A DNA stretch of 64,000 nucleotides, taken from positions 801,444-865,443 of the forward strand of contig MFAS01000001.1 in assembly GCA_001774685.1 (NCBI GenBank), given 5' to 3'. Shown here piece by piece: positions 1,046 through 60,420 of the stretch. Source of the DNA: Candidatus Collierbacteria bacterium RIFOXYD2_FULL_45_13. Lineage in GTDB: Bacteria; Patescibacteriota; Microgenomatia; UBA1400; MFAQ01. Numbering within the stretch: the stretch's first letter is position 1; each line of letters begins with the position of its first letter. The notes below the pieces were generated by a model. That model ran no database searches, was not told the origin of the DNA, and saw only the letters and a list, made by a program, of their open reading frames with translations. The position numbers and the translations under genes are program-made.

Positions 1046-1116
1046 ATTCTAAAGCATGAGTTAAAATGAACCCGCGCGTGCTCCACGAAATGTACAAAGT
1101 AGAATCTTATATATAA

Positions 1117-3111
<1,995 letters not shown>

Positions 3112-3114
3112 CCT

Positions 3115-4050
3115 ATGAAAACCTACGTTTTTGGACACATCAAACCGGACTTGGACTCCGCCGTCGCCGCCCTTTCCTTTGCGGAATACAGAAAACAAAT
3201 GGGGGATGTAGACGTTATTCCCGCCATGAGTGGAGTAGCCAACCCCGAAACGGCATTTGTCTTTAATAAATTCCAGCAATCTCTGCCACAACAAATTACC
3301 TCGGCGGAGATTCTTCCCGATGACCATATCGTTTTAGTTGATCACAACGAAACCGACCAAAGAATCGAAAACCTTAATCAGGAGCAGATTATTGCGATTT
3401 ACGATCACCACACTGTTTACCTCAATCTCACCCATCCAATTGAGATCATTGTTCTGCCTTTGGGTTCCTCAAATACGATAGCTTGGAAATTATTCAAACA
3501 AAATAACTTAGTTATTCCTCAAAACATTGCTGCCCTAATGCTCTGTGCCATTTTGTCTGACACGGTCGGCCTTAAGTCGTCCACCACTACCGAAACAGAT
3601 AAATTAGCCGTCGCAGATTTGTCGGCTGTATCAAACATTTCAGATATAAACAGTCTAACTCTCGACATTTTTAAAGCCAAATCCAATGTCTCCGCTCTTT
3701 CGGATGAACAAGTAGTTTTAAATGATTACAAAATTTTTGACTTCGGCAAAAAAGTCCTCATCGGTCAGCTGGAAACCGTGGAGCAGGATGTACTACTGAG
3801 TAACAGAAAACAGGGACTTATTCAAGCTCTTCAATTAATTAAAGACCGTGAAGGGGTTGACTTTCTAATCCTGGCTGTTACGGATATTCTAAAAGTTAAT
3901 ACCAAGTTATTAGTCAGTGGAGCGGGAGAGATAGACTTGATTCAAAAAGCCTTCGATGGTACCGTTCAAGAAAATATTCTTGACATCGGTCCCAAAATGT
4001 CCCGCAAAAAAGATATTGCTCCCGCGATCGAAAAAGCCTTAATACAATAA
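3115..4050 (+). CDS. ppaC: Manganese-dependent inorganic pyrophosphatase (family II, DHH-DHHA2)
   Basis: The N-terminus reads MKTYVFGHIKPDLDSAVAA (DHH motif I). Further motifs are VLVDHNE, DHH, ILSDTVGLKSSTTTETD and the C-terminal GPKMSRKKDIAP, which resembles the DHHA2 SRKKQ motif of PpaC. The length of 311 aa also fits. Confidence 0.75.
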   Translation: MKTYVFGHIKPDLDSAVAALSFAEYRKQMGDVDVIPAMSGVANPETAFVFNKFQQSLPQQITSAEILPDDHIVLVDHNETDQRIENLNQEQIIAIYDHHTVYLNLTHPIEIIVLPLGSSNTIAWKLFKQNNLVIPQNIAALMLCAILSDTVGLKSSTTTETDKLAVADLSAVSNISDINSLTLDIFKAKSNVSALSDEQVVLNDYKIFDFGKKVLIGQLETVEQDVLLSNRKQGLIQALQLIKDREGVDFLILAVTDILKVNTKLLVSGAGEIDLIQKAFDGTVQENILDIGPKMSRKKDIAPAIEKALIQ

Positions 4051-4060
4051 ATAAACAACC

Positions 4061-6688
4061 ATGGACGAAAATCAAAACCTAGACCCGGAACAAGAAATCA
4101 CAGCCTCAGTTTCCGTACCGAATGAACAGACACAATGGGGTCTCATCAGAATCACTCCCATTATTGAAGAAATGGAGCGGTCCTATTTGGACTACGCTAT
4201 GTCAGTTATCGTGGCTCGCGCTCTACCAGACGTCCGAGATGGTCTAAAGCCAGTTCACCGTCGTATTCTTTTCGCCATGAAAGAGATGGGGCTCACTCAC
4301 AAAAGCGCTTACAAGAAGTCAGCACGTATCGTGGGAGAAGTTCTGGGAAAATATCATCCTCACGGTGATCAGGCTGTTTATCAGACCATGGTCCGCCTGG
4401 CTCAAACTTTTTCCATGCGTTATCCACTCATTGACGGTCAAGGAAACTTTGGCTCTATTGACGGTGACTCCGCCGCCGCCATGCGTTACACCGAAGCACG
4501 CTTAAGCAAAATTGCGGGTGAAGCTCTTGAAGATATCGACAAGAGAACTGTAGATTTAATCGACAATTTCGATGGTTCTCAGCAAGAGCCCACGGTTTTA
4601 CCGGCCAAGTTGCCCAACCTTCTGCTCATGGGTTCGGACGGTATTGCGGTTGGTATGGCTACTAAGATTCCTCCACACAATCTACTCGAAGTTGTCGACG
4701 CGATCAAAAACTTGATCGACAAAAGCACCGCTACTGTTACCAAACAATACCCGGATGTAGAACTTGTTTCAGCGCCTTACCGTGACCTCATCGGCAATTT
4801 GGAATCCATTGTGGAGATAGAGGAACTTTGTAAACACATCAAGGGACCGGATTTCCCCACTGCCGGCATTATCTACGATACAAACGAAATCAAGAAACTC
4901 TACGCTACCGGCAAGGCAAGCATTATTGTCAGAGGCGTCGCTGAAATTGTCGAAAAGAAGAGTGGCCGTTTCCAGATTCTGATTACCGAACTCCCATATC
5001 AAGTCAATAAGGCTAAACTCATTACCAATATCGCTGAATTAGTCAAAAAGAAAAGACTGGAAGGCATTGCCGATCTCAGAGATGAATCCGACCGTCAGGG
5101 TATGACTGTCGCTATCGATCTCAAAAAGGACGCCAAACCGAAAAGTGTTCTCAACAACCTTTATAAGTTCACAGAGCTTCAAACCAGTTTCCCAGCCAAC
5201 GTCGTGGCTCTGACTTCAGACGGAACTCCTCATCTCTTGAACCTTAAACAAATTTTGATGGAGTACACTGCCCACCGACAGGGGGTGATCGTCCGTCGTA
5301 GTCAATTTGAGCTCAAAACAGCCCAAGACCGCGCCCATATTTTAGAAGGGCTATTGATTGCTCTCAAAAACATCGATGATGTTATTGAGACCATCAAGAA
5401 AAGTCCTGACAGCGAAACCGCCAAAACCAATCTTATGTCCAAGTTTGGATTATCGGAGATCCAATCCATCGCCATTTTGGACATGCAACTCCGAAAACTG
5501 GCCGCCCTCGAAAGACAAAAAATCGAAGCCGAATATCAGGAACTTAAGAAACAAATTGAGAAACTGGTCTCCATTCTCAAAGATCCCAAGCAAGTTCTTC
5601 AAATTATCAAAGATGAGATCACCAAACTGGCTGTCGACTATCCGGAAAAAAGAAAAACCAAGATCGTCGCCAATGCCCCGGGTACTTTCTCCGAAGAAGA
5701 TCTTATACCGGCCGAGGAAACCATTGTCGCTCTTACAAAATCCGGCTACATCAAGCGCATGCCACTCGCTACCTTCAAAACCCAAAAGAGGGGAGGCAAA
5801 GGAGTTTCCGGCATGACCATCAAAGACACCGACGAGATTCATCTGTTAACCAACGCCAACACCCACGATCGGTTATTGGTGTTCTCCAGTAAAGGCAAGG
5901 TATTCTCGCTTAAAGTTTGGGAACTGCCAGAAGGCAGTCGCATCAGCAAGGGTCAGGCCATTATCAATCTCATCAATATCGATACGGATGAAACCATTCA
6001 GTCGATTTTGCCCCTTACTGCACAAATCAACAAAAACGACTGTCTCTTCTTTACCACCAAAAAAGGTATCGTCAAACGAACCGTCCTCAGTAAGTACGAA
6101 AATATTAAAAGCAACGGACTGATCGCTATCAAGCTGACCGATCAAGATAGTCTTGTCTGGGTGAATAAAACATCCGGTAGCGACCACATTCTTCTGGTCA
6201 GCCGCGACGGCAAATCCATTCGCTTCAAAGAAAGTGACGTTCGCCCAACAGACAGAGATACCATGGGTGTTCGCGGCATCCTGCTCAAGGGTGATGACTA
6301 CATAATCTCCATGGAGTCATTTGCTGAAGCCGAACCAGTATCAACCGATAAAAGAATCAAGCTATTTCGAGATCTTCTGGTAGTCACCGAAAAAGGCATG
6401 GGTAAACGGACTCCGATTCCTGAGTACCCGGTCCAGAATCGATCGGGACAGGGGCTCAAGGTTAGCGAAACTGCCGACAAAACCGGAAAAATCGCCGGGG
6501 CTCTACTCGTCGACCAGGATTCGGAAGTTGTTCTTATCACCACGTCCCAAGGCCAGGCCATCAAACTGCCGGTCAGAAACATCCCGAGACTCGGACGCGC
6601 TACCCAAGGTGTTATTCTCATGCGCTTCGCCAAAGAAGGGGACAGTATCGTTGCTGTCACCGTCGTTTCCGAATCCGAAGAAGAGTAA
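4061..6688 (+). CDS. gyrA: DNA gyrase subunit A
   Basis: The 875-aa protein contains [25 protein letters not shown], the active-site region [11 protein letters not shown] and a C-terminal beta-pinwheel repeat region. Confidence 0.97.
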
Positions 6689-6694
6689 CAGCAG

Positions 6695-7207
6695 ATGAAT
6701 ATCAAAGAGTACGAGTCAACTCTCGGAGAGCCTCTGAGACAAGCCACTATCACCTTTTTGTTGACCGAAAAACAGATTTTATTAGCCCTCAAAAAGAGGG
6801 GATTTGGTCAGGGAAAGTGGAACGGTACCGGGGGCAAACCCAAAGAGGCGGAGGATGTTTTGTCCGCCGCTATCAGAGAAACACAAGAAGAGGTTAACGT
6901 CACTCCGGAGAAATTAGAGTTGGTGGCGATCATCAATTTCTATTTTCCCTTTGTGCCCAAGGATAAAAACTGGAACCAACAAGTCTGTGTTTATCTTTCA
7001 AGGAAGTGGCAGGGTACACCACAAGAAACGGAAGAAATGAAACCCGCCTGGTTTCCCCTTGATAACATTCCCTACTCGGAAATGTGGTGGGATGACGAAA
7101 TTTGGTTGCCTTTGGTGCTATCCGGGAAAAAAATATTGGCAGGATTTATGTTTGACGAAAACGAAAAAATTATCGACCAAGTAGTTGAAGAACGAGAAAA
7201 TTTTTGA
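6695..7207 (+). CDS. NUDIX hydrolase (MutT-like)
   Basis: NUDIX box GGKPKEAEDVLSAAIRETQEEVNV, matching Gx5Ex7REUxEExGU. The gene ends with a TGA stop. Confidence 0.75.
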   Translation: MNIKEYESTLGEPLRQATITFLLTEKQILLALKKRGFGQGKWNGTGGKPKEAEDVLSAAIRETQEEVNVTPEKLELVAIINFYFPFVPKDKNWNQQVCVYLSRKWQGTPQETEEMKPAWFPLDNIPYSEMWWDDEIWLPLVLSGKKILAGFMFDENEKIIDQVVEERENF

Positions 7208-9736: not shown

Positions 9737-10684
9737 CTATTTCAAGAATTTATCATGGATTTGCTTCAGTTGGGGATTGGTCACGTGAGTATAGATTTGG
9801 GTCGTTGCTACGTTTTTGTGACCCAACATTTCTTGCACGCTGCGCAGGTCCGCTCCTTGCTGGAGTAGGGTAGTGGCAAAGCTATGGCGAAGCACGTGTG
9901 GGCTCACCTTAATCGGCAAACCCGCTGATCGCCGATATTTCTCCACAATTCTCTGGATCCCTCTTATCGACAGCCTGGCCTTCTCATTGCCCATAGTTGG
10001 ATCCCAGTCACCGCTTTTGGGAACCCGCACCCACAAAGCTCTAAATGGATCTGTCCGGGCCGATAGATATCGACCCAACCATTGAGTGGCCCTCTCCGAC
10101 AAGAAAACCAGTCTCATTCTTCGACCCTTCCCCAAGATCCCGAACTCTCTCTCCTTCAAATCAATTTTATCAATATCCAGCTTGGCGAGTTCCGAAACAC
10201 GCAACCCTGTACTAAACAGCACTTCCAAAATAGTTCTATCACGCAGACCGCTGATATTTGAAGTATCCGGAGCCACGAGAAGTCTCTCCACCTGCTCCCG
10301 ATCTAGAAATTTTATTTGATGTTCTCCCGGCTTCGGTAGGTCCACTTTTTCCGCCGATAAAGTTTTTACCCCTTTTTTTGCGCAATATTTCAAAAACGCT
10401 CTCAGAGCGATGACGTAATAACTCTGCGTGGTAGGGGAGAGTCTCTTACCCTCTTTTGTCTCATATCTGGCCAAAAACAATCGATATTTACGAACCATCT
10501 CGCTAGTTAGTTTTTCTATATATTCCTGCTCGTAATGCTTCTCGAACCATTTGCGGAACATTCCCAGATAGTGAGAGTAGTTCCGTATCGTGAACTTGGA
10601 GTAGTTTTTCTCTACCTCAATAAAGCTCAGATATCGCTTAATCAAGATTCTAAGCCCTAAATCGTTTACCGGTTTTTTAACCAC
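9737..10684 (-). CDS. Tyrosine site-specific recombinase, XerC/XerD family
   Basis: The C-terminus reads HVLRHSFATTLLQQGADLRSVQEMLGHKNVATTQIYTHV (R..H..R..Y catalytic signature). The N-terminal SYYVIALRAFLKY core-binding domain is present, and the 315-aa length is typical of chromosomal Xer recombinases. Confidence 0.85.
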   Translation of the reverse strand: MVKKPVNDLGLRILIKRYLSFIEVEKNYSKFTIRNYSHYLGMFRKWFEKHYEQEYIEKLTSEMVRKYRLFLARYETKEGKRLSPTTQSYYVIALRAFLKYCAKKGVKTLSAEKVDLPKPGEHQIKFLDREQVERLLVAPDTSNISGLRDRTILEVLFSTGLRVSELAKLDIDKIDLKEREFGILGKGRRMRLVFLSERATQWLGRYLSARTDPFRALWVRVPKSGDWDPTMGNEKARLSIRGIQRIVEKYRRSAGLPIKVSPHVLRHSFATTLLQQGADLRSVQEMLGHKNVATTQIYTHVTNPQLKQIHDKFLK

Positions 10685-10815
10685 AATCCATCATACCAAA
10701 TTATTGTGCGACACCGATTCGGGCAGGGGAATATCCCATAGCCTTGACAGGCCGCAAAACCTAACTATAATATATCAAAGCTCTTTGATTCCATATGCTA
10801 TTTAGGAGGTAGAAC

Positions 10816-11313
10816 ATGAAACTCGAGCACGAACATGGTCAAGGTCTGGTCGAATACGCTTTGATCTTAGTGTTGGTTGGCATTTCCGTCATTGTCATTC
10901 TCCAGTTTCTTGGTCCCGTAGTTTCCGCAGCTCTGGCTGGTGACCAAACAAGCATCATCTGGCTGGTAATCGGTGGTGGTGTAATCACCCTGATTCTTGG
11001 TGCAGCCTACTACGTGCTCGCCAGATTCGAAAAGTTCTCCGATTCGTACCAAGACGAAGGCAAGGAAAAGACAACCGATAAGACCGAAAAAGGACAAGGT
11101 CTGGCAGAATTTGCCCTCATCGTCCTCCTGGCAGCTATTGTCATCATGGCTGTGTCCATGTGGTATGAGCCAATTGTCACCCTCTTGCTATCCCTGCCCG
11201 TCACTTGGGGCACTGTCATAGGAATCATACTGGTTGGTGGTCTAATATTGGTAGGTCTCGGAGTCGCCATTAACCGTCTATGGAATAAAATCGACAAATA
11301 CCCTTACGAATAA
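10816..11313 (+). CDS. Flp/Fap-type prepilin-like protein with an internal tandem duplication (two G-x-x-x-x-E-Y/F units)
   Basis: Unit 1 reads MKLEHEHGQGLVEYALILVLVGISVIVIL. Unit 2 reads DKTEKGQGLAEFALIVLLAAIVIMAV. Each unit is followed by a second hydrophobic helix. The motif G..(L/V)EYALI matches the Flp pilin N-terminus. Upstream lie a TATAAT-like box and a GGAGG ribosome-binding site. Confidence 0.55.
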   Translation: MKLEHEHGQGLVEYALILVLVGISVIVILQFLGPVVSAALAGDQTSIIWLVIGGGVITLILGAAYYVLARFEKFSDSYQDEGKEKTTDKTEKGQGLAEFALIVLLAAIVIMAVSMWYEPIVTLLLSLPVTWGTVIGIILVGGLILVGLGVAINRLWNKIDKYPYE

Positions 11314-11332
11314 TTCCCTCAAATAAACCCTC

Positions 11333-12187
11333 TCACACGAGAGGGTTTTTAATTATTCCATTGTATGGTTGTTCCGGAGTAATCTTCTTTTGCTCTTCCG
11401 TCAGACCGCAAGGAACTCGATCAACAACGACGACTTCTTTAATTTTCGTCGCCACGGTAAGCCTCCACACAATATTCCTGAGCTGCATTCGATAATATTC
11501 ATCTGCATTTCCTTCCTGAACCCAAGAGCCTCCAGTGCCCCAACAGGCAATTACCAGAAGGCTAGTCGCCGACGGAGGAATTAGTTGTACATCTCTCCCT
11601 GTCAAACGTTGTCTGTTAGACAGCTCCAAGGTTCTATCAAAGAAGTCGTTCTTGGGATATGCAAACATCGCCGCCGTCGGTAAATCCGCGCAAATTAAGA
11701 TTGCAGTCTTGGTCCCCGGTAGTAATAGGGATCTCTCATCAGCCACCAGGTCAAAACTGTTATTTTCTTCTATGGATGCTCCTGATCTTTTGTTTGTTAC
11801 ATCCACAATTTTCCCGCCTTTAATTAATAGCGCACTATTTCTTGGCCTGCCAGAATCTACAAATAGGGGAGTGCCAATAACAAATAGGGTCTTGATTCTC
11901 GTGGCCGAAAACTCCAACATTTCATCCAACCGCTCATTGATCAAGTTGCGGTTTGTTACTAAATCAGTAAAGGCATCACCTGCACAAGTAATTAGCTCCG
12001 GTCCGGCCACGATAGGAGTATCGGGTGACACAAAGTCAATCATTCTCCGGAACTCCTCCCAAGTATTTGCCGACACTCCGACAATTTCCGTTCTATCCAT
12101 CAGAGAATACCGGTGAATTCCGATCTCGCGGTAATATGTCTCCTGAAGCGAAAGGGGAGACAATCTCCCCTCCGGATAGATACTCAT
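11333..12187 (-). CDS. Carbon-nitrogen hydrolase (nitrilase/amidase superfamily)-like protein
   Basis: The 284-aa soluble protein contains TAILICADLPTAAMFAYP, which resembles the catalytic-Cys motif G..ICYE..FPE of CN hydrolases. Assignment is tentative. Confidence 0.35.
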   Translation of the reverse strand: MSIYPEGRLSPLSLQETYYREIGIHRYSLMDRTEIVGVSANTWEEFRRMIDFVSPDTPIVAGPELITCAGDAFTDLVTNRNLINERLDEMLEFSATRIKTLFVIGTPLFVDSGRPRNSALLIKGGKIVDVTNKRSGASIEENNSFDLVADERSLLLPGTKTAILICADLPTAAMFAYPKNDFFDRTLELSNRQRLTGRDVQLIPPSATSLLVIACWGTGGSWVQEGNADEYYRMQLRNIVWRLTVATKIKEVVVVDRVPCGLTEEQKKITPEQPYNGIIKNPLV

Positions 12188-12255
12188 CCGGTAAGTATAT
12201 CAAACCACATCACATACCACTACCCAAAAGCTGGTTTGTTGTCTAAAATAGACAC

Positions 12256-12543
12256 ATGTCCGAACTCGATCCAATCATTATCAACATTCCCTGTCCCACC
12301 AAAGAAGAGGGGATTAGGCTTTGTACAGAAATGCTCAAACAGGAGCTCTGTGGTACAACCAAGATCCAAGAAGGTGTTCATCTCATGTACGTCGAGGAAG
12401 GTGTTCAAGGATCAGACATTGTTCTTCTTAGTATAAAAACTACCAAAATAAATCTTGAAAAAATTCACGAATTTATCCTCAAAAATCACAGCTGGGGTAC
12501 ACCCTGCATCGAAGTTCTTCCCATGATGGTAGATATGTGCTAA
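12256..12543 (+). CDS. cutA: Divalent-cation tolerance protein CutA-like
   Basis: The 95-aa protein reads IINIPCPTKEEGIRLCTEMLKQELCGTTKIQEGVHLMYVEEG...LLSIKTTKINLEKIHEFILKNHSWGTPCIEVLPM. This follows the CutA1 pattern (CP..E.A..IA..L...LAAC ... S.Y.W.G.I ... KT ... HPYE.P..I.LPI). Confidence 0.55.
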   Translation: MSELDPIIINIPCPTKEEGIRLCTEMLKQELCGTTKIQEGVHLMYVEEGVQGSDIVLLSIKTTKINLEKIHEFILKNHSWGTPCIEVLPMMVDMC

Positions 12544-12689
12544 CAAATTGATGATGAAATAAAATGTTCATAGATAGTATATTCCCTCTGTCATCATCCA
12601 TATTTAGCATACGTATATCAAATCAAATCTCTAGAATATTTATCCTTTCCCCCCTTCACGTAAGTTTTTTACATTGCTACAATATATAA

Positions 12690-13550
12690 ATGACACCAAT
12701 TGTTTTCGCCATTATCACCGCCATCGGTTGGGCAACAGCCGACATCTTTGGTGGTTTAGTTGCCCGCAAAATAGGCGGATATTCATCGGCGATTTTGTCA
12801 TACATTATTAGCATTCTTCTTACTTCTTTTTACATCCCCTTTGCCTGGCACGAACTAAGTGGCATTACACCCACCACTATCGCTTGGTTATTGATCCTCA
12901 CCCCTATCGGGATTGCCCCACTCATTTCGTTATACGAAGGGTTCAAAGTCGGCAACCCCTCGCTTGTCGGTACCATCGCCAGCGCCTTTGGTGGTTTAGT
13001 TGCCATCCTCTCAGTTGTATTCCTTGGAGAAAAATTAAACGTTGCCCAAGTTATTTCAATTTTTGCCATAATACTAGGTCTCATCGTTTCTTCACTCGAC
13101 CTTAAGAACCTCAATACAAAGCAAATATTATCCGACAAAGGCATTCCTTTCGCCCTTGTATCATTACTTGCCTGGGGGATATATTACACTTTTGTTAAGA
13201 TCCCTCTGCAAAACATCGGCTGGTTCTGGCCAACGTATCTATCATATTGGGGATTTCCTTTAGTTTTAATATTCATGAAAATTAAGGGTATCAAATTAGT
13301 CTTGCCCAAAGAGAAAAAGAACATCGTATTCCTGTTAATCAACGGAGTTCTCCTTACAATCGCGCTCTTCGCCATCAACTACGCCCTGACCCTAGGACAA
13401 AGCTCTGTAGTTTCTCCCATCTCTAGCTCCTATCCGGCGCTCTTCGCCATCATCGCCTATTTTGTTTTTAAAGACAGACTTAATAAGCAACAAATTCTCG
13501 GCATTGCCATCACCCTCGCCGGTGTACTTTCCCTTGCCATTACGTCCTAA
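12690..13550 (+). CDS. EamA/DMT-family transporter
   Basis: The 286-aa protein has about 10 predicted transmembrane segments and two EamA-like halves. A TACAATAT box lies just upstream. Confidence 0.7.
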   Translation: MTPIVFAIITAIGWATADIFGGLVARKIGGYSSAILSYIISILLTSFYIPFAWHELSGITPTTIAWLLILTPIGIAPLISLYEGFKVGNPSLVGTIASAFGGLVAILSVVFLGEKLNVAQVISIFAIILGLIVSSLDLKNLNTKQILSDKGIPFALVSLLAWGIYYTFVKIPLQNIGWFWPTYLSYWGFPLVLIFMKIKGIKLVLPKEKKNIVFLLINGVLLTIALFAINYALTLGQSSVVSPISSSYPALFAIIAYFVFKDRLNKQQILGIAITLAGVLSLAITS

Positions 13551-13617
13551 TCCGAGGCTCATAGTACCCCTGTTATAATTCACAGGTATTCTTAACATTC
13601 TCATTCCGGAGGTTTCT

Positions 13618-14007
13618 ATGCCTGAGTTCCTGCTTCGATACAAATTACCAGAAGACCTTGACACGGCCACAGAAGAAGAAGTGTTTGTCAATCGAATGTG
13701 CGAAATGGCTGATCGTATCCAACAAATCATCAGTTCTAACTTTTTTGGTTGGGATGTTTCTTATGAAGTCAGGGAGTTTGGCCACACCAGAGGCATGCCA
13801 GACCTATATGTTACTGCTTGGGTGACGGATAACTCTGATGCATACGCCACCTTCGCAGAAAAAGCCGTCGCAGAGATCCAGGATTTAATGCGAAGCTATG
13901 CCTGGGGAAATCAGAAAGTTGGCTGTTGGTTCCAGCGCGTCAAGGGTAAGTGGAGTGAGGCTCTTGGACGGCGACCGTTTTTGCCTATTACGAGATATTC
14001 TTACTAG
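13618..14007 (+). CDS. Hypothetical acidic protein
   Basis: The ORF has a GGAGG ribosome-binding site and a TATAAT-like box upstream. A bidirectional terminator follows at 14018-14043. No recognisable motif was found. Confidence 0.4.
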   Translation: MPEFLLRYKLPEDLDTATEEEVFVNRMCEMADRIQQIISSNFFGWDVSYEVREFGHTRGMPDLYVTAWVTDNSDAYATFAEKAVAEIQDLMRSYAWGNQKVGCWFQRVKGKWSEALGRRPFLPITRYSY

Positions 14008-14017
14008 AACCCTCAAC

Positions 14018-14043
14018 AAACCCGCCTCAATGGCGGGTTTTTC
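14018..14043. terminator. Bidirectional rho-independent terminator between convergent genes
   Basis: The sequence AAACCCGCC-TCAATG-GGCGGGTTTTT forms a hairpin with U-tracts on both sides. Confidence 0.5.
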
Positions 14044-14044
14044 A

Positions 14045-15013
14045 TTACACCCTAATCAATTTCTCCAGCCACGGCAAATTTTCGTTTTTCCTTTTCCACC
14101 ACAAATCTTCCCAGATATAGTGGACAGCTAGTTGTTTATACTTCCCGTATTTTTCAAAATACTTTAGCAGGTCTGCCACCGCTACCGGGTTCTCCGGATC
14201 TGCCTCAAAAAAAATTTTGGAATAAATTTTCTGCTCCCATGGAGAAATGTGGTTGAAAAAATCCAGGTGATGAAACACATCAAAGAGCAAATACCAGACC
14301 GTAGCCGGGCCAACTCCATAGAGTCTTAGCAGTTCCGTTCTTTGCGGCTCCAAGTCCTTCTTTCTAAGATAATTTTCATCAATCAGACCCGCAGCAAACT
14401 GGTCATCTAACATCTTAATAGATTTCGCCCTGTATCCGACTTTTAAGTCTCTCAGACTTTCAACGCTCGCGTTTTTCAAGTCACCCGGTGCCCAGAAGCA
14501 AAACAATTCTATCCCCTCAAACGAAAGCTTCTTCCCATACTTTTCGATTAACGCTTTAAACATTTGCATCGACCTTCTTACTGTCGCGTTCTGCAGGACT
14601 ATCCCGATAATTAAATATTCATATAAAGAACTGGGGTGTCCGGGTTTCATCCCCCGCCATTTAGTAATGATAGGGGAGAGGGTCACATCTTTTTCAAAAG
14701 TGGCATAGAAATCGGACAAATCGAGCTGCAGATTGTATCTATACTCAATTTCCTTGGTCAAGGATGTGACAAACTCCTCACTCGGCTCAAAATCGGCATA
14801 GACGATAATTTGCAGTCGGGGATTGTCGACCTTTCCCACGTTCACGAACTTTAGGCCTAGATTCCTTCCTTCATGGTTCCACGTTTGCCACCAGGTACCT
14901 GGTTCCCACAGATTATCACCCGTCGTAAAGTGGTCCGGCTTGTGGAAAGTCGAATCAAAATCAAATGGCGCCAGGGGGGTGACGAATACTTCTCTTACCT
15001 TCTTTAATTCCAT
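14045..15013 (-). CDS. HhH-GPD superfamily DNA glycosylase-like protein (AlkA/Ogg-like)
   Basis: The segment IVLQNATVRRSMQMFKALIEKYG resembles the start of an HhH-GPD domain. The helix-hairpin-helix LRLYGVGPATVWYLLFDVF is followed by Asp, and the 322-aa length fits an AlkA/Ogg1-type two-domain glycosylase. Confidence 0.45.
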   Translation of the reverse strand: MELKKVREVFVTPLAPFDFDSTFHKPDHFTTGDNLWEPGTWWQTWNHEGRNLGLKFVNVGKVDNPRLQIIVYADFEPSEEFVTSLTKEIEYRYNLQLDLSDFYATFEKDVTLSPIITKWRGMKPGHPSSLYEYLIIGIVLQNATVRRSMQMFKALIEKYGKKLSFEGIELFCFWAPGDLKNASVESLRDLKVGYRAKSIKMLDDQFAAGLIDENYLRKKDLEPQRTELLRLYGVGPATVWYLLFDVFHHLDFFNHISPWEQKIYSKIFFEADPENPVAVADLLKYFEKYGKYKQLAVHYIWEDLWWKRKNENLPWLEKLIRV

Positions 15014-15049
15014 AGAGTTACCCTAACATATCCCGAAACAGGAGTCAAT

Positions 15050-15931
15050 CTATACTCTCACCCCTTTCGATTGGTTCTTAAGTTCCAACGCAGCATAAAA
15101 GCTGGAATCCAGCGAGATCCAGTTTTTTAGGTTATTTTTTATGTCTTCTACTAAACAGTCCAAGTCTCTTAACGTATCCAATAAATACAGGCGTTTATCA
15201 GATCTCCCAACTATCAGCCCCATCTCTTCCGTATCGTGATCCATAACATAGTCCGTAAGTAGTTTCTTTCCCTCTGGTGTTAATAGAAAAGTAGTTTTTT
15301 TGTCTACCATATCAGTAAGTGATCTGCCTATTGCCACAGGATCGGAACTATTATCAATCCACACAAACCCCAAACGAAAGGCAAACCCTTCTGCAGAGGC
15401 CATAGATTTGTACGGAAAGAACAACTTTGATGTTTCTGGGACCAATTCATGCAAGTACGAGAGCGACAACAGCCTAAGGGTTTGCCCGTTGCCATCGGAA
15501 TACGGGTGAATTAACATCCCCAGAGTGTTCATTACGGCAATGAATCTGAAAGTTGCAGCTTCAATTTTATCCTCTGGACAACTTCGTAGCTCGTAATAAA
15601 GTTCATCCATCAGTTGAAAATACTGATCGGTGCGTTCAGCCACCATTTCTTTACCGACATATTCAAACTCTACTACTTTGTCTCCAAAACGCACCTGAGA
15701 TTTTTCCCTGTATGCTCGAACCTCATCGGGTGCTTGACCAACAAGTTTTGAATAACCCTTATAAATCTGATTCCTTATCTGAGATACTCTGACTTCAAAA
15801 GCCAGGCCAAAAGTTACTTCGTGCGTTTCCTCCCATTCCCTCTGATTCTTAACTCTATTAATTCTGACTTGGGGCAGATCAAGGCTCTCGGAAGTCAGCT
15901 CTCCTTCGATACTCATACCAAATTCTATCAT
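15050..15931 (-). CDS. Fic/Doc (Fido)-domain protein
   Basis: The Fic motif HPYSDGNGQTLRLL corresponds to HxFx(D/E)GNGRxxR with the first Arg replaced by Gln. The gene lies 37 bp upstream of the glycosylase-like gene on the same strand. Confidence 0.75.
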   Translation of the reverse strand: MIEFGMSIEGELTSESLDLPQVRINRVKNQREWEETHEVTFGLAFEVRVSQIRNQIYKGYSKLVGQAPDEVRAYREKSQVRFGDKVVEFEYVGKEMVAERTDQYFQLMDELYYELRSCPEDKIEAATFRFIAVMNTLGMLIHPYSDGNGQTLRLLSLSYLHELVPETSKLFFPYKSMASAEGFAFRLGFVWIDNSSDPVAIGRSLTDMVDKKTTFLLTPEGKKLLTDYVMDHDTEEMGLIVGRSDKRLYLLDTLRDLDCLVEDIKNNLKNWISLDSSFYAALELKNQSKGVRV

Positions 15932-16030
15932 CTATACTCTAGCAAAGACCGAGCCTGTCTTTTGGATATCCTTTATAGTTGACACAACCCATAACGTGTC
16001 ATATACTCGACGAATATCCTTGTACTTTAA

Positions 16031-16798
16031 ATGGAGGTTATTGTGACGCATAAGTACACCTTTTTGGCCCCGAATATCAAAGTATCCTTGATGTTTGCCG
16101 ACCTGTTCGTGGTCGCATACGATCAACCGGAGATTATGGTCGAGGCCGTAGGTGATGACTATGTTTGTAGTCATCTGATTTCCAAAATTGTCGATCAAAC
16201 TCTCACCGTTTCCTTTCCTGTCCCTCTACTAAACGGTCGGTACACTTCAACCGGGAGTCCACAGCAGATCAACGGCACTCTTTGTGTAGACTTCGAACCA
16301 GTTGATCTTTCGCGCAAGATTCAGGTGGTCATACACATTCCCGGCAACACTAACCTGGATGTCAAAAAACTAATAGGGAACTCGCACATCGGAAACTTTC
16401 AAGGCGACCTCACCCTCCAAGGTTTCATGGGGTTCGAGAACTTCACCGGTGCTGTCGGAAACTGCGAGATCGGCGCTTCATCCAGTTTTAAAGCAAGTGT
16501 TGAAAGGGTTGTCGGAAACTTAATGGTGAATGGATCCAGCAGCGCCAAGGTGCAAATTGGCGAGGTGTCAAGTCCTTCTATCAAACTGGATCTCTCTTCG
16601 CACGCCCACGTTTCAATTTCCGGCGGTATTGCCATCTCGACGAAAGTCTCGGGCTCATCGGGGGCGACGGCCAGTCTTGATATAGCCTCAGAAATTGCAG
16701 ACCTATCGGGCTCCAGTGGAGCAAACATACATCTAAGACACTGCATCAAGCCACCCCGTATCAGTAAAAGCAGTGGTGCCTCAGTCAGTGTCGGTTAA
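16031..16798 (+). CDS. Beta-helix repeat protein, DUF2807/DUF4097-like (putative adhesin head-domain repeats)
   Basis: The protein has periodic G-(N/S)-x-x-(I/V)-x-x short beta-strand repeats (GNSHIGNFQGDLTLQ, GNCEIGASSS, GNLMVNGSSSAKVQIGEV, SGSSGATASLDIAS, SGSSGANIHL, SSGASVSVG). No signal peptide is obvious. Confidence 0.4.
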   Translation: MEVIVTHKYTFLAPNIKVSLMFADLFVVAYDQPEIMVEAVGDDYVCSHLISKIVDQTLTVSFPVPLLNGRYTSTGSPQQINGTLCVDFEPVDLSRKIQVVIHIPGNTNLDVKKLIGNSHIGNFQGDLTLQGFMGFENFTGAVGNCEIGASSSFKASVERVVGNLMVNGSSSAKVQIGEVSSPSIKLDLSSHAHVSISGGIAISTKVSGSSGATASLDIASEIADLSGSSGANIHLRHCIKPPRISKSSGASVSVG

Positions 16799-17821
16799 TA
16801 TTTCTCTTCACCCGTCCTTAGTGGCGGGTTTTTCACATCGTGAAAAAAAACAAGGGACAGACAGGTAGGGGAGAGGGGAAAGAAAAGCAAAATGTCTAAG
16901 ATAACCCATAATGTATAGACCGGCAAAACCTGGTTACCTATCTAAAAAAAATTTAATAAATATGATTATATAAATGGGTGAAGATCTTCTTTATCAATAT
17001 TTTAATAAAAATATCTCGGCTCAAAAATATTCAAAAATTATTAAAGATTTTTAAATAGGAAACATAGATAAAATTGTTTGTAATCATGTCGCAAGATTCC
17101 ATAAAAACCCACCTCTAAGCCTGCAAAAATCGGGCTCGTAGAATGCCCCTAAAACGGCTTCTGGAACTTTTTATGGCTAGTTAATCATTGACCAAATACC
17201 TTGATATATCCACCCAAAGCTAAAATCGAGATAATTGCGGAAAAACTTTCGGGTTTATCTACAATTAGGCACAATCTGAGGCTATTAGGCTCGAATACGA
17301 AAGAATTGGCCACAGACAAAGACCGGAGAACAGATTTACTGCAAGTTTCGGGATTATCTACAAATAATCACGGAACATAATAGATACTACTCCGGTGCCT
17401 GCCTTATCGAGATACGTCGCAAAAGTGTTATTGTGCGACGTATTAGAAATCATTCTTCTCTGTCTCCATGTTTTGGATAAATAGGGAACTATAGAATAGT
17501 GTCCGCATTCTTTCATCCCCTCGTTACACTAACTCCAACTCATCGTCGCCGGCAAATTCTAATAAAATATTATTATTCGCTTCCTCGTCGGTCTTATCTC
17601 GCCCGCCTTACGCGCCGTACCAAACAACCATATCAATCCCTATCACCTGGCAGTTATCCACAAACGGTGCCAATTTTCGTGAAAACTATGGGGTTTCGTG
17701 AAAACTATTATAGGCCCCATAACGTTATGGGTTTATTATAGGTCTCATAGTTATAGGCCCTCTCCCCTTCCAACCCGTCCCCGTATTTTTTTTGAGTTCT
17801 TGAATTTTTGAGTTTTTTTAT

Positions 17822-18673
17822 TTATCCCACCCAAGAAGTTGTTAGGAATCCAATAATAAAAATAATAATAACTGTCACCCCATACTCCAACAGACTCTCC
17901 AGATATACCCGGCTGGACAATCTCTGCTCTAAAATTCCCAACAGAGCATACAGAATCGACGTAAGCATTAAACCACCCATAAATGGCTTTACCGGCCAAA
18001 AAGATAAGGCCATTCCGCAGATTGCAATGACCCAGCTTACTACCAAAGAGTACCGCCCGGCATCATGAAGAATATCTCCCTTAAGGTCCACGCTCCAAAA
18101 ACTGGGGAAAGATAAAATCACTGAAACTATAAAAACCATCGGTGCGACCCACCAGAAAGGCAATTTCAGGCTTAAAGCTACCGTATAGAAAAATAACGAA
18201 GCTACGAGCGTCAGAATAAAGTTTACCGATCTGGCTGCCCGAAAAAGCTGGATGGTTCTAATCGAAGCTACCGAAAAAATATTCTCAATTAGTAGGATTC
18301 CATACATAGCCAAAGCATAGAAGACAAAATACAAGATTCTAAAAAGTCCAGCTAAGAGCATCGATGTTTCCAACTGGAAAGCTCTGCCAAACATACTAGG
18401 AACAGCCGTTGGCAAAAAATTGGCAAACAAGCCACTACCCAAAGTAAACATCACCGGCAATACCATCAACGTGAGCCATTCAATGCCCTTCAAATCGTCA
18501 AACAACACCCACACCGATAATACATAGGAAACCGCCGAAACTACGAGGTATAGTCCAAAACGGTAATCAACAGGCGCCGTGGTCGTTAGCCACAGTGCCA
18601 CCGAAATGATGCCACTGATAAATATAAATCTTGATCTTTTAGACATATTATGCCAAGTTACTCCACACATCAA
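17822..18673 (-). CDS. Polytopic membrane protein, hypothetical
   Basis: The 283-aa protein has about 8 predicted transmembrane segments. No motif was recognised. Confidence 0.45.
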   Translation of the reverse strand: MMCGVTWHNMSKRSRFIFISGIISVALWLTTTAPVDYRFGLYLVVSAVSYVLSVWVLFDDLKGIEWLTLMVLPVMFTLGSGLFANFLPTAVPSMFGRAFQLETSMLLAGLFRILYFVFYALAMYGILLIENIFSVASIRTIQLFRAARSVNFILTLVASLFFYTVALSLKLPFWWVAPMVFIVSVILSFPSFWSVDLKGDILHDAGRYSLVVSWVIAICGMALSFWPVKPFMGGLMLTSILYALLGILEQRLSSRVYLESLLEYGVTVIIIFIIGFLTTSWVG

Positions 18674-19172
18674 CTACGTCGTCTAAATCAGATAGCAAGT
18701 CGGTAAGTTCCGTAAGTTGACGCTTATCAATGTCGGACACCATGACTGTCGGAACAGGAATGATAGACTTCATATACGATACAGATCCCGGTCCGCCCAG
18801 CTTAGCTCCATGCTTATCTAAGATATTCTTAACTTCACCTGCTGTCCTATTCCTATTATCGGTCACAGCCGTGATTAAGATACCTACACCAAACGGTCCG
18901 TATGCCTCATATGTTATTTCTTCAGCAGCGGCTCCCCCACCTACCCCCGAAGCTTTTTCGACCGCTCTTTTGATATTCTCCATTGGCATGTTTACCGACC
19001 GGGCTTCTTCCACGCAGGCTCTGAGATAAGGATTGGCTTCGATGTCACCAGAGCAACCTTTTTTTACGGCTATATGGATCTTTTTAGCTATTTTAGTAAA
19101 CACAGAACTTCTCTTGTTATCCTCAATCGCCTTCTGATGTTTTATGGTTGACCACTTGGAGTGACCGGACAT
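18648..19172 (-). CDS. yebC: YebC/PmpR-family DNA-binding regulator (start trimmed to MSGHSKW)
   Basis: The protein starts MSGHSKWSTIKHQKAIEDNKRSSVFTKIAKKIHIAVKKG, the canonical YebC/TACO1 N-terminus. At about 175 aa it is shorter than typical family members. Confidence 0.8.
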   Translation of the reverse strand: MSGHSKWSTIKHQKAIEDNKRSSVFTKIAKKIHIAVKKGCSGDIEANPYLRACVEEARSVNMPMENIKRAVEKASGVGGGAAAEEITYEAYGPFGVGILITAVTDNRNRTAGEVKNILDKHGAKLGGPGSVSYMKSIIPVPTVMVSDIDKRQLTELTDLLSDLDDVVDVWSNLA

Positions 19173-19246
19173 AGTTTGAATTCTATCAGGAGCCAAGACC
19201 CAAAACAACTTGACAGGCAGTTAAATCATCTATATCATTTCTCAGC

Positions 19247-22509: not shown

Positions 22510-23382
22510 TCATTCTAACGAAGATAGAAACTTTTCACAATCCATAGGCAAGGGAGCTTCCACCACGACCCTCTTGCCGTTGTACGCTTCAAACCCCAAA
22601 CTTGCTGCATGAAGAAAATGATGAGATAAACATTTTCTGTCTTCTCTTCCGAATTTTCTGTTCAGGTACTTATCGTCTGCAAATATCGGCCAGCCCAAAA
22701 ACGAAAGGTGTACCCTGATCTGATGGGTTCTTCCTGTTTTAAGATCTAATTTCAACAGAGTCAAAGCGTCTTTCCAGTGTTCGTGCCCACGGAAGACATA
22801 GCGCTTGATCACTTTCCAACCCGTAACCGCCCTCTTACCTTCATAATGCACCTGCCATTTTTCCCTGTCGTACAGGCTTCTCTTCAACGGCAAAACTGTT
22901 TCACCCATATCCGGCTCTACTCGCCCGTGAACCAAAGCCAAATAACTCTTGGTTAACTTCCTCTCCTTAAAAAGCTTTAGATAATAATGAAGTGCCTCGG
23001 GACTCTTGGCTATTAGCAAACACCCGCTCGTTTCCTTATCCAGCCGATGGCACACCCCGCTCCTCCCCCAGTACAAAGTACTATCCTTATCTTGAGTTCT
23101 AGAGTTCTGGAGTTCTTGAGTTCTTTCATACCACCCCTGCTCCTCCACCCAGTCTTGAACAGTCTGGCCGGTAATAGAGTCGGCTCTGTTTACCACCAAG
23201 CCCACAGGTTTATTAATCACCAGGCTGTCCTCATCCTCATACAATATCGGAATTTCCATTACCCTAAGTATACCCGCCCGCTCGGGTTGTTGCTCTAGTG
23301 TCTGCGGGTGGATACGAAAGAATATGAGGTTAAATACAATATCACCCCTGTCGAAATCATTACGTCTGAAAGATTGAACCAA
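22510..23382 (-). CDS. rluD: RluA-family pseudouridine synthase (RluD-like)
   Basis: Catalytic motif HRLDKETSGCLLIAKS. An S4-like N-terminus and the typical arrangement overlapping lspA are present. Confidence 0.85.
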   Translation of the reverse strand: MVQSFRRNDFDRGDIVFNLIFFRIHPQTLEQQPERAGILRVMEIPILYEDEDSLVINKPVGLVVNRADSITGQTVQDWVEEQGWYERTQELQNSRTQDKDSTLYWGRSGVCHRLDKETSGCLLIAKSPEALHYYLKLFKERKLTKSYLALVHGRVEPDMGETVLPLKRSLYDREKWQVHYEGKRAVTGWKVIKRYVFRGHEHWKDALTLLKLDLKTGRTHQIRVHLSFLGWPIFADDKYLNRKFGREDRKCLSHHFLHAASLGFEAYNGKRVVVEAPLPMDCEKFLSSLE

Positions 23383-26882: not shown

Positions 26883-26965
26883 GCCGGGATGGCGGAATGG
26901 TATACGCTCAGGTCTCAAAAACCTGTGGTCGCAAGGCCGTGAGGGTTCGATCCCCTCTCCCGGCA
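26883..26965 (+). tRNA. tRNA-Leu (anticodon CAA), class II with long variable arm
   Basis: Acceptor GCCGGGA/TCCCGGC. Anticodon stem CAGGT/ACCTG with loop CTCAAAA (anticodon CAA). A 15-nt variable arm. T-arm GAGGG-TTCGATC-CCCTC. Discriminator A. CCA is not encoded. Confidence 0.8.
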
Positions 26966-26976
26966 CATTGAAAAAT

Positions 26977-29095: not shown

Positions 29096-30415
29096 CTACT
29101 TCTGGTGTCCCCGATCCACGCCATAAAACTTAACCCGATCTCCTCTGAACTTCAGATCGATAGACCCAAGTCCCCCGTTTCGGTGTTTAGCGATTGAAAG
29201 TTTCATGTCCTCCAAATTATTATCGTCAGTCCGGTACATAAACATCACCACATCGGCATCTTGCTCAATGCTTCCTGACTCACGCAGATCGGCCAGCTGG
29301 GGAATCTTTTCGGTTCGGCTTTCTATTCCCCGATTTAACTGAGATAAAGCCAGTACGGGAATCTTCAGCTCACGGGCCAAGTTTTTAAGACCCTGAGAGA
29401 TGGCACCCACTTCTTGAACGCGACTTTCGTAGCTTTTGTCCCCAACCACAAGCTGTAAATAATCAACTACCAATAGTTTCAAACCAACCTGAGAGTGTAA
29501 CTTTCTTGCTTTGGTACGGAGCTCCAAAATTGATTGTCCTGGGGTGTCATCAATATATAGAGGACAATCGGCCAAGACTCCCATGGCTTCCGAAAGACGA
29601 GCAAAGTCGTCTTCCTTGAGATTACCCGTTTTTAGTTTCCAGGCATCGATATTGGCCTGGCCCACCAGCATACGGTCGACCATTTCCAGATTACTCATTT
29701 CCAGAGCAAAATAACCGACAGGCATTTTTCTCTCTACTGCGGCGAATTGTGCGATATTGGTTGCTAGAGTTGTTTTTCCTATACCCGGACGAGCCGCCAA
29801 GATAATTAAGTTGCTATCCTGCATGCCGGCAAGCATATTGTCGAGATCCGAAAATCCGGTGGGCACACCTCTCAACCCGTCAGGAGAGTTGTGCAATGAG
29901 TCCAAACGGTCAAAGCTTTCGGCCAAGGCATCCTTAATCGGCACAAAAGACTTTCGCACGTGGCTTTGAGACAAAGCATATATCGATTGCTCGGCTTTAT
30001 CCAGGATCTCCCCAAGAGGTTTCCCTTCATCAAACCCCATCTCCCCCATCTGAGCTCCCGCCGAAATTAATAATCTTTTGATATGACAATCTCTAACAAT
30101 CTGAGCATACTTTTGAACATGAGAGGCTACCGGCACCTCGTTTGACAGCTCAGACAAATACGCTCTACCCCCGACTCTATCCAAAAGCTTGTTCTTTTTC
30201 AGCCAATCTGAAACCGTCAGAACGTCAATAGGGTCTCGGTTTTCATACAAGGTCACCATCGCTTCAAAAATCTTGCCGTTGTTGTCGTTGTAAAACATCT
30301 CCGGTTGCAAAACAACCGCGATATCAACAATGGCGTCCTTATCAATTAAAACCGATCCGAGTATTGATTTTTCTGCTTCATCCGCATGAGGTGGGAGCCT
30401 AAGAATAGAACTCAT
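29096..30415 (-). CDS. dnaB: Replicative DNA helicase DnaB (start trimmed to MSSILRLPPH; AAAGGAG ribosome-binding site)
   Basis: N-terminal ILGSVLID motif, Walker A ARPGIGKTTLATNIA, and RecA-like motifs. No intein is present. Confidence 0.92.
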   Translation of the reverse strand: MSSILRLPPHADEAEKSILGSVLIDKDAIVDIAVVLQPEMFYNDNNGKIFEAMVTLYENRDPIDVLTVSDWLKKNKLLDRVGGRAYLSELSNEVPVASHVQKYAQIVRDCHIKRLLISAGAQMGEMGFDEGKPLGEILDKAEQSIYALSQSHVRKSFVPIKDALAESFDRLDSLHNSPDGLRGVPTGFSDLDNMLAGMQDSNLIILAARPGIGKTTLATNIAQFAAVERKMPVGYFALEMSNLEMVDRMLVGQANIDAWKLKTGNLKEDDFARLSEAMGVLADCPLYIDDTPGQSILELRTKARKLHSQVGLKLLVVDYLQLVVGDKSYESRVQEVGAISQGLKNLARELKIPVLALSQLNRGIESRTEKIPQLADLRESGSIEQDADVVMFMYRTDDNNLEDMKLSIAKHRNGGLGSIDLKFRGDRVKFYGVDRGHQK

Positions 30416-30570
30416 TTCCGGATCTCCTTTCGTAACGAAAGCATGTGTTTTCGAGCGAAAAGCTTGAAGCGCGACGAAGGTGTAATACAAAGGAATTACA
30501 TCTAGAAGCGCTGAGGGCTTTGCAGCCGAAAAGACGTGGTTGCAGCAGAATGGAGATTCGGAAGTGGGTT

Positions 30571-32487: not shown

Positions 32488-32539
32488 TTTCATACTTTGA
32501 GTTTTCGATTTTTTGAGTTTTTTGCTTTATGATTAGAAT

Positions 32540-60154: not shown

Positions 60155-60420
60155 GCTGATTTGTATTTACTAATTTCTATTTCTGCCAAAGGTAGATATA
60201 GTTCTTCAAACTTTGATATCATCTCATTTAACCGTCTCTCAAGCAGATCGTTTGAATAGTTGCCGTCAAAACGGCTATCCAAAAACTCTAAGATCTCCCT
60301 CTCCCTCTCGGATGTCAAGTTGTTACTCCCCTTTAGTTCTTCAACAGTATGTCTGACAATCCGGACGACTTCGTCCTTCAATGAATGTGGTTCCATATGG
60401 GGTATTTTACCACTCGTCAA
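60151..60420 (-). CDS. Hypothetical small protein (89 aa)
   Basis: The ORF is translationally coupled on both sides: a 4-nt overlap with dnaX upstream and with the 599-aa ORF downstream. Confidence 0.4.
   Translation of the reverse strand: MTSGKIPHMEPHSLKDEVVRIVRHTVEELKGSNNLTSEREREILEFLDSRFDGNYSNDLLERRLNEMISKFEELYLPLAEIEISKYKSA

Follow-up and report, generated by a model that had tools for sequence, protein, structure and literature searches.

The 64,000-nt stretch analysed here (the window) covers positions 801,444 to 865,443 of contig MFAS01000001.1 (assembly GCA_001774685.1) of Candidatus Collierbacteria bacterium RIFOXYD2_FULL_45_13; Collierbacteria are members of the Microgenomates within the candidate phyla radiation (CPR). 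A gap at 16799-17821 separates the stop codon of an open reading frame (ORF) for a 255-aa protein (16031-16798, + strand; an identical copy is encoded on MFAP01000001.1, GCA_001774675.1) from that of a DUF5656 gene (17822-18673, - strand). An earlier note, made from the letters of the window, had described this gap as non-coding, AT-rich and furnished with iteron-like direct repeats, and had suggested a non-coding RNA gene, a replication- or partition-type iteron array, or the decayed end of a mobile element. A conserved non-coding element built around a palindrome was found to occupy 17119-17769, the right two-thirds of the gap, and it is proposed here, as a reading about evenly balanced between right and wrong, that this element is an Xer-type recombination site with accessory DNA.

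The conserved element between convergent genes

Related loci, named Candidatus Collierbacteria, were retrieved by means of the DUF5656 protein, and the locus alignment set consisted of 21 sequences (the window and 20 related Collierbacteria loci). In BLASTN comparisons with 24 related loci, conservation of the right part of the gap (17118-17821) equalled or exceeded that of the neighbouring coding sequence; the left part (16799-17117) was not conserved. The element spans 593-662 bp in the 21 sequences and is always located after YebC-DUF5656 in all 20 related Collierbacteria loci; the DNA downstream of it differs by genome. Divergent versions with the same motifs in the same order are present in more distant Microgenomates (L025-L029).

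As the earlier note had stated, the gap contains no credible ORF: the longest inside it encodes 80 aa, and none is conserved in the 20 relatives. A hidden or frameshifted gene was also rejected, no reading frame being conserved among the relatives; their ORFs differ in frame or are absent, and the peptides shared are DNA motifs read in different frames. The 80-aa ORF (17499-17741) occupies the same place as a conserved 77-aa gene of Saccharibacteria-like contigs, and is neither homologous to it nor conserved. The blocks of the element, in their order on the minus strand, are as follows.

Part of 17708-17769: M1, the proximal end of the conserved element; CCCTCTCCCCTT on the + strand, AAGGGGAGAGGG on the minus strand
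17708, 17737 and 17751: M2, TTATAGG three times on the + strand, CCTATAA three times on the minus strand
17675-17708, + strand: M3, two iteron-like copies of TTTCGTGAAAACTAT (minus-strand GTTTTCACG twice), TTTTCAC being invariant in both copies
17654-17662, + strand: M4, a perfect DnaA box, TTATCCACA (minus-strand TGTGGATAA)
17626-17647, - strand: M5, GGTGATAGGGATTGATATGGTT, with TGATA-N6-TGATA one helical turn apart; TGA…GATA is invariant
17555-17578: AT-rich tract, conserved in position (alignment columns ~213-232)
17447-17489, - strand: M7, GAGAAGAATGATTT, and M6, GTTCCCTATTT, with invariant AGAA and CCC columns and a spacer of 43-46 nt to M8
17412-17443, - strand: M8, a 32-nt 13-6-13 palindrome, ATACGTCGCACAA-TAACAC-TTTTGCGACGTAT, candidate Xer (dif-type) core site
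17343-17363, + strand: M9, AAGTTTCGGGATTATCTACAA, of the TTTCGKG family, with a DnaA-box-like TTATCTACA inside; AATCCCGAA is invariant
17244-17264, + strand: M10, AACTTTCGGGTTTATCTACAA, of the TTTCGKG family, with a DnaA-box-like TTATCTACA inside; AACCCGAA is invariant in the 21 sequences
17132-17190, - strand: M11, the longest block (55 nt), with core AGAAGCC-GTTTTAGG-GGCATTCT, near-invariant in the 21 sequences and att-like

The repeats of the earlier note correspond to blocks M2, M3, M9 and M10. The 15-mer pair TTTCGTGAAAACTAT lies where it had been placed (17675-17689 and 17694-17708, a spacing of 19), and the three copies of TTATAGG(C/T)C are present at 17708, 17737 and 17751. The 21-mer pair exists too, but its copies are at 17244-17264 and 17343-17363, 99 nt apart rather than about 130 nt, the second one not being near 17376. 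The claim that the repeats exceed chance was borne out: TTTCGKG, which is shared by M3, M9 and M10 on the + strand, occurs 12 times in the window, four of them in the gap, all on the + strand, and all motifs are kept in register in the 20 other Collierbacteria loci. The DnaA box (17654-17662), the palindrome (17412-17443), a 35-nt inverted repeat described below and the confinement of conservation to 17119-17769 had escaped the earlier note.

The minus-strand order of blocks is M1, M2, M3, M4, M5, AT tract, M6+M7, M8, M9+M10 and M11, and the spacers between them keep their length even where their sequence differs (51 nt in 21/21 sequences, and 84-85, 43-46 and 62-67 nt). The 51-nt spacer is that from M9 to the palindrome, exact in every sequence. 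On the minus strand, M9 and M10 read ..AAYCCCGAAA. Direct repeats are spaced at about one and about two helical turns: TTTTCAC pairs are 19-23 bp apart, TTGATAT pairs are 10-11 bp apart in Microgenomates loci, and pairs of TTGATAT(A/C)G with a distance of 10 nt, of the M5 type, recur over these loci. Free spacer sequence combined with fixed spacer length, conserved blocks and helical phasing argues for a nucleoprotein DNA site rather than a folded RNA. From what is established for oriC and attP, we infer that the element is a cis-acting DNA control locus and not a gene, with the palindrome at 17412-17443 as its core.

The palindrome, the xer gene and M11

A survey with a degenerate pattern of the palindrome core gave at least 120 metagenome contigs and 36 IMG/VR contigs that contain it, always as a single copy per contig. 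The palindrome is thus present once in the 64-kb window and once in each of more than 150 loci, these being contigs and not whole genomes. About one-third of the metagenome matches have the context TPR/YebC/DUF5656/site/xer; the remaining ones are near ftsQ-murG or M23-peptidase-gltX, mostly between convergent genes. The intergenic space that holds the palindrome can be as short as ~90 nt, and outside the Microgenomates the palindrome can stand alone there. Many of the IMG/VR matches are Saccharibacteria-like genome fragments, and L201, L205 and L209 are genuine phage contigs with palindrome-like sites. A search with a 36-nt palindrome query gave only chance-level matches, one of them at an unannotated site of a Helicobacter suis plasmid.

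Two features at a distance from the gap bear on the palindrome.

9737-10684, - strand: xer, a gene for a XerC/D-family tyrosine recombinase of 315 aa, ancestrally the next gene after the element
10703-10712, - strand: exact copy of the palindrome left arm GTCGCACAAT; it precedes the start codon of xer by 19 nt and is a candidate operator for autoregulation

The xer product contains the Pfam domains Phage_int_SAM_1 and Phage_integrase, and scores 247 bits with the NCBIfam profile XerC and 239 bits with XerD, versus 118 bits with XerS (cut-off 267). A protein search with it matched only close Collierbacteria relatives. In 24 metagenome loci a XerC/D-family gene is situated 0.05-5.5 kb downstream of the palindrome, and every Microgenomates-context locus that extends far enough has such a gene downstream on the same strand. 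The palindrome is only 55 nt from xer in L085, and xer is within about 350-430 nt of the element in L018 and L024; in the window, ~6.4 kb of variable genes lie between the two.

Exact copies of GTCGCACAAT number two in the window, one in the palindrome arm and one upstream of xer. Of 38 related loci, 22 have the arm 10-mer upstream of xer, on the same strand and 20-125 nt away. Across 1.05 Mb of locus sequence, that strand contains 32 additional arm copies where ~2 would be expected. In L024 the copy is placed between TTGACA and TATGAT. Both arms of the palindrome have changed together in the clade of L018, L021 and L022, and in L018, where they have become GTCGTG.., the copy upstream of xer is likewise changed, to GTCGTGAAAG. 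Because the isolated arm is conserved and covaries with both arms of the palindrome, its sequence appears to be read by a protein in duplex DNA. The obvious candidate for this protein is Xer, which would bind both its own site and its own promoter.

At the distal end of the element, M11 behaves as an att-like integration hot spot. In L008 (7495/8114) and L009 (7488/8077), the distal ~95 nt of the element are duplicated directly ~600 bp downstream, the copies being ~70% identical, and an M11 identity of 27-30 nt is common to the IMG/VR contigs L030 and L181. The other M11-pattern matches in IMG/VR were mostly due to chance or in coding sequence, only these two being extended; L030 is otherwise without similarity to the loci, and no integrase was seen in it. 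No second copy of M11 that might be an attR was found in the 64-kb window. A terminator or helix inside M11 was considered and rejected for lack of covariation. The insert between the duplicates in L008 and L009, 600 bp with one small ORF, may be a miniature integrated element or a remnant of one.

Some further observations concern the surroundings of the palindrome in other lineages. In the phage contigs L201 and L209, AATACTNAGGCACA follows right after the palindrome, and in Collierbacteria TAGGCAC is found ~20 nt past it; the two may represent a further shared motif. The Saccharibacteria-like IMG/VR contigs (L184-L219), which resemble host genome fragments more than viruses, have a conserved gene of 67-78 aa after murG-ftsQ, its start 60-80 nt from the palindrome. 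In another lineage (L048, L063, L078), a second arm 10-mer follows the palindrome at a distance of exactly 611-613 nt and is on the other strand.

A proposed Xer site weighed against other functions

The sequences show the conservation, architecture and synteny of the element, the covarying arm copy at xer, and the exclusion of an origin and a terminus (below); protein binding and strand exchange are proposed. Dif-type sites have two inverted arms around a central region of 6-8 bp and an Xer-family gene in the same genome, as does the palindrome with its 6-bp centre, and are found at the terminus, where the palindrome is not. In the proposed mechanism, each of the two inverted arms would be bound by one monomer of the XerC/D-family recombinase encoded nearby, and strands would be exchanged over the 6-bp centre in the way known from dif, difSL and difH. 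By way of the third arm copy in the xer promoter (10703-10712), Xer would repress its own gene. The flanking blocks (two TTTCGKG pairs, three CCTATAA, the TGATA pair, the DnaA box, the AT tract and the 55-nt M11) would bind accessory proteins. The constant distances between these blocks would give the DNA the form of a defined nucleoprotein complex, as do the accessory sequences of cer and psi or the arms of lambda attP, and the site could then function at a distance from the replication terminus. M11 would separately serve integrating elements as an attachment site. The biological purpose could be dimer resolution, island capture or another process.

A fuller version of this proposal, which is held with little confidence, specifies a CPR-specific Xer site, GTCGCACAAT-N4-CTTTTGCGAC, that would work off-terminus and in Microgenomates would lie inside a 650-bp nucleoprotein locus recruiting DnaA and iteron-binding factors. 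Such a site would provide position-independent (FtsK-independent, topologically filtered) dimer resolution or replication-coupled capture of islands, and CPR phages would exploit the palindrome. IMEX elements exploit dif in a comparable way. The phage contigs with palindrome-like sites also favour an Xer site as such, since Xer-exploiting elements have sites of this sort.

Among known systems, the element is closest to the single-module XerS/difSL of streptococci and lactococci, and differs from it in position, flanks and recombinase subfamily. In each case there is one tyrosine recombinase gene and, upstream of it and in physical linkage, a palindrome with a centre of 6 bp that is its site or, in the CPR, its candidate site; the inner arms are of the AAAA/TTTT type, and in L085 the palindrome is 55 nt from xer. 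In the published work on XerS/difSL, an overlap of difSL with the xerS promoter, or a position after it, was considered possible, and autoregulation was suggested. In contrast to the Collierbacteria site, difSL is at a GC-skew shift; the recombinase here is XerC/D-like and not XerS, in most Microgenomates a distance of 0.3-5 kb separates the gene from the full site and the promoter has an arm copy of its own, and difSL has nothing that corresponds to the ~600 bp of conserved flanking blocks.

The layout xAAAA-N6-TTTTx of the palindrome is that of difH as well as of difSL. The XerH/difH system of Helicobacter and Campylobacter (difH ..TGAAAA-CTATAA-TTTTCA.., compared with ..GCACAA-TATATC-TTTTGC.. 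in the palindrome) also has a single recombinase and a conserved non-palindromic position beside the centre, but its arm sequences are unrelated and difH needs no long conserved flanks. With the XerCD sites cer and psi and with lambda attP, the element would share a core crossover site within a few hundred bp of accessory sites at fixed spacing. In those systems, such accessory sites make recombination independent of chromosomal position. Unlike cer, psi and attP, the element has flanks on both sides of the core, including a DnaA box, and the locus is chromosomal and vertically inherited.

At stem position 4/19 of the palindrome, the left and right bases are CG in 71 cases, CA in 49, TA in 11 and TG in 11, and this apparently independent combination fits two independent half-sites better than an RNA stem. 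Several points speak against an Xer site. The independence at stem 4/19 was read from matches to a pattern that allows only Y/R at that position. The compensatory changes of the arms, together with U·G intermediates, would fit folded RNA or single-stranded DNA equally well. Two-thirds of the metagenome matches are without a recombinase gene near the palindrome, which is normal for dif and yet lends no support, and the protein that binds the arm could be a regulator other than Xer. Known Xer systems offer no role for an invariant DnaA box or for the enrichment of such boxes around the palindrome. Lastly, the site is not at a terminus-type GC-skew switch in any of 33 loci; to our knowledge, all characterised chromosomal dif systems lie at the terminus.

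The non-coding RNA gene of the earlier note would have to be ~520-650 nt long on the minus strand, in the direction of YebC and DUF5656, with the palindrome as a hairpin and M11 as a 3' end targeted by integrating elements that bring a replacement copy; we regard it as unlikely. Integrating elements do target the 3' ends of tRNA and tmRNA genes, bringing a replacement copy, and the duplication of the distal ~95 nt around the 600-bp insert and the 27-30-nt core common to viral contigs would suit this role. The compensatory changes of the hairpin point the same way, and U·G pairs outnumber A·C pairs (12 versus 3) on the minus strand of the Collierbacteria hairpin, but 49 of 142 hairpins contain a C·A mismatch, and RNAalifold found covariation among the 21 sequences in the palindrome only. 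The element has a constant length, a position between convergent genes, TATAAT-type boxes (CCTATAAT) and a TGnTATAGT-like box upstream, but as a whole it folds no better than shuffled sequences (minimum free energy z-scores of -1.3 and -1.6), and its fixed-length spacers are devoid of structure (mean z ~0 on both strands). The arm also occurs as an isolated 10-mer at the xer promoter, and outside the Microgenomates an intergenic space of 90 nt can hold the palindrome by itself; neither observation favours an RNA gene. No Rfam family reached its gathering score in the gap, where matches were at chance level only with E values up to 10, nor was any found at the homologous site in 14 relatives; the sole Rfam/ARAGORN match in the window is a tRNA-Leu (CAA) at 26883-26966. 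A long-range pairing of M7 with the AT tract appeared in some single folds and was dismissed as not kept across sequences. In a scan of the gap for terminator and promoter consensus sequences, one of each kind of site was found, no excess over shuffled sequence.

A DnaA-dependent control locus of replication, or a silent or auxiliary origin with an oriC- or oriV-like array of strong and weaker boxes, iterons and AT tract, is likewise unlikely. It would titrate or recharge DnaA like datA or DARS, or fire under special conditions, and the palindrome would bind an accessory factor. The DnaA box M4 is near-invariant: TGTnnATAA is invariant, and the remaining two positions are conserved in 20 of 21 sequences (L019 has TGTAGATAA and L020 has TGTGAATAA). 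Within 410 bp, the gap contains this perfect box and three with one mismatch, including those inside M9 and M10, along with the AT tract at 17555-17578. In Collierbacteria, however, there is a single strong box, the only one kept in all relatives, and outside close relatives the DnaA-like part of M9 and M10 is not conserved, only CCCGAA being kept. Perfect boxes are enriched at up to 600 nt from the palindrome in both Microgenomates and other contexts (20 in 45 kb versus 4 in 237 kb, or 26-fold, and in a second set 12 in 87 kb versus 7 in 352 kb, or 7-fold). In the phage contig L205 (IMG/VR contig 3300038566_000454), two perfect boxes abut the palindrome-like site, ~40 nt upstream, and a primase/helicase gene is nearby; this site could be a phage origin or attP. 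Conserved blocks with variable spacers of fixed length are the classic oriC pattern, the iteron-like pair is spaced at ~22 bp, and replication genes are concentrated in the window (those for a holB-like delta' subunit, gyrB, gyrA, dnaB and dnaX, at 404-6688, 29096-30490 and 60417-61970).

The hallmarks of oriC are a negative-to-positive switch of GC skew and a cluster of DnaA boxes by an AT-rich unwinding element, usually next to dnaA or dnaN. Bulk GC skew is negative across the window, and the skew at third codon positions (GC3) on the + strand is ~-0.3 for nearly every gene over the 64 kb on either gene strand, the exception being a 172-aa ORF at 6689-7204 (+0.12). Among 33 loci with enough flanking sequence, GC3 skew had the same sign on both sides of the element in 30, changed from negative to positive in 3 and from positive to negative in none. 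With no skew switch at the element, in bulk or gene by gene, an active chromosomal origin was rejected; a dif site at the replication terminus was rejected as well, there being no positive-to-negative shift in the 33 loci and the window being uniform. None of dnaA, dnaN, rep and par adjoins the element, whose neighbours are DUF5656, YebC and a variable segment, and DnaA was not found among the large ORFs of the window that were tested. An iteron-type plasmid origin, which would have tandem iterons of 17-22 bp beside the gene of their Rep protein, was also set aside, as there are two tandem and two distant repeats, no adjacent rep gene and no plasmid similarity. Of the functions named in the earlier note, the iteron array has fared best as a reading at the level of DNA, and the parts of it that imply a chromosomal origin or an adjacent rep or par gene have fallen away.

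The element thus shares with oriC and iteron plasmid origins a DnaA box, direct repeats at ~22 bp, an AT tract and blocks with variable spacers of fixed length, but it lacks a GC-skew switch, is not next to dnaA or rep and has a single strong DnaA box. With datA and DARS of E. coli and the DnaA-box clusters of Bacillus it has in common, as established for those, a non-origin intergenic position within a replichore and one or more DnaA boxes with sites for DNA-bending proteins; unlike the element, those loci have several strong boxes, are not conserved beyond families and are without a palindrome or a link to a recombinase. The arm copy at the xer promoter, which an Xer site would account for, is left unexplained by a DnaA-dependent locus.

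In the searchable literature, nothing of relevance was found on a CPR dif site, on DUF5656 or on a CPR non-coding RNA, nor any account of the motif or the locus. CPR bacteria make up a large share of bacterial diversity, and the cis-acting DNA that maintains their tiny chromosomes is almost unstudied. If the palindrome is the CPR Xer site, it offers a sequence tag for searches of CPR genomes and phages of every kind, no earlier dif-type site would have been systematically off the terminus, and its fixed-spacing flanks and invariant DnaA box would point to a new control of Xer recombination. For an in vitro test, one 315-aa protein and short DNA fragments would suffice, and the organism need not be cultured. 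If the locus is instead a DnaA-control site or an unstructured RNA gene, it would still be a new conserved non-coding element of a bacterial class.

The left third of the gap and other features of the window

The part of the gap to the left of the element contains the following features.

16799-17118: left third of the gap, non-conserved and AT-rich, the edge of a variable segment between the element and xer
16808-16835, + strand: probable intrinsic terminator of the 255-aa gene, as judged by eye, ACCCGTC-cttagt-GGCGGGT followed by TTTTT
16843-16877: inverted copy of the proximal end of the element, …GGGGAGAGGG, with its partner at 17758-17792

The strong AT-richness that had been noted at 16900-17100 was confirmed, GC content falling to 24% at 16900-17099. 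Similarity of relatives to the left third is limited to a patch at 16823-16928 in six loci. The probable terminator was not listed by the consensus scan; comparable GC hairpins are present just past the element in L008, L009 and L023. The inverted repeat 16843-16877 / 17758-17792 is 35 nt long, imperfect (74% complementary) and brackets ~950 bp, and its distal copy recurs in 12 Collierbacteria loci as CCCTCTCCCC, 200-480 nt past M11.

A mobile-element remnant, either a unit like a miniature inverted-repeat transposable element bounded by this repeat or the decayed end of an island, is highly improbable for the conserved element: the imperfect terminal inverted repeat with its recurring inverted copy, the variable adjacent DNA and the att-like behaviour of M11 could be taken as its traces, but the element is single-copy in the 64-kb window, is at the same position in all relatives, keeps its motifs in lineages whose flanking protein is only ~35% identical, and has neither a target-site duplication nor (for the whole gap, by BLASTN) a match in phage and plasmid collections. 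A decaying transposon was rejected on the same grounds of one copy, fixed syntenic position and no target duplication. The decayed mobile end of the earlier note is therefore retained for the left third (16799-17118) only.

If M11 is an attachment site, it would account for the variable, AT-rich DNA beyond it, that is, 16799-17118 and the 6.4 kb up to xer. The segment at 10685-16798 encodes a Fic-domain protein, an OGG/HhH-GPD-like glycosylase, CutA1, EamA, the 255-aa protein and small ORFs, and the DNA that separates the element from xer has the look of an island that entered at M11. Gene orientation converges locally on the gap despite the uniform skew, with + strand genes at 1-9 kb and - strand genes at 17.8-31 kb.

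The YebC/TACO1 homologue at 18648-19208 (- strand) belongs to a short type, 174-186 aa versus the usual ~240 aa, and its linkage to DUF5656, the element and xer holds throughout the Microgenomates. Since yebC adjoins ruvC in E. coli, a link of YebC to recombination is conceivable. A T-rich 28-nt motif (AATTTTTGAGTTTTTTTATT-like) is present just past the ends of genes at 17791-17818, 23102-23129 and 32496-32523, and may be a lineage-specific terminator or 3'-end signal.

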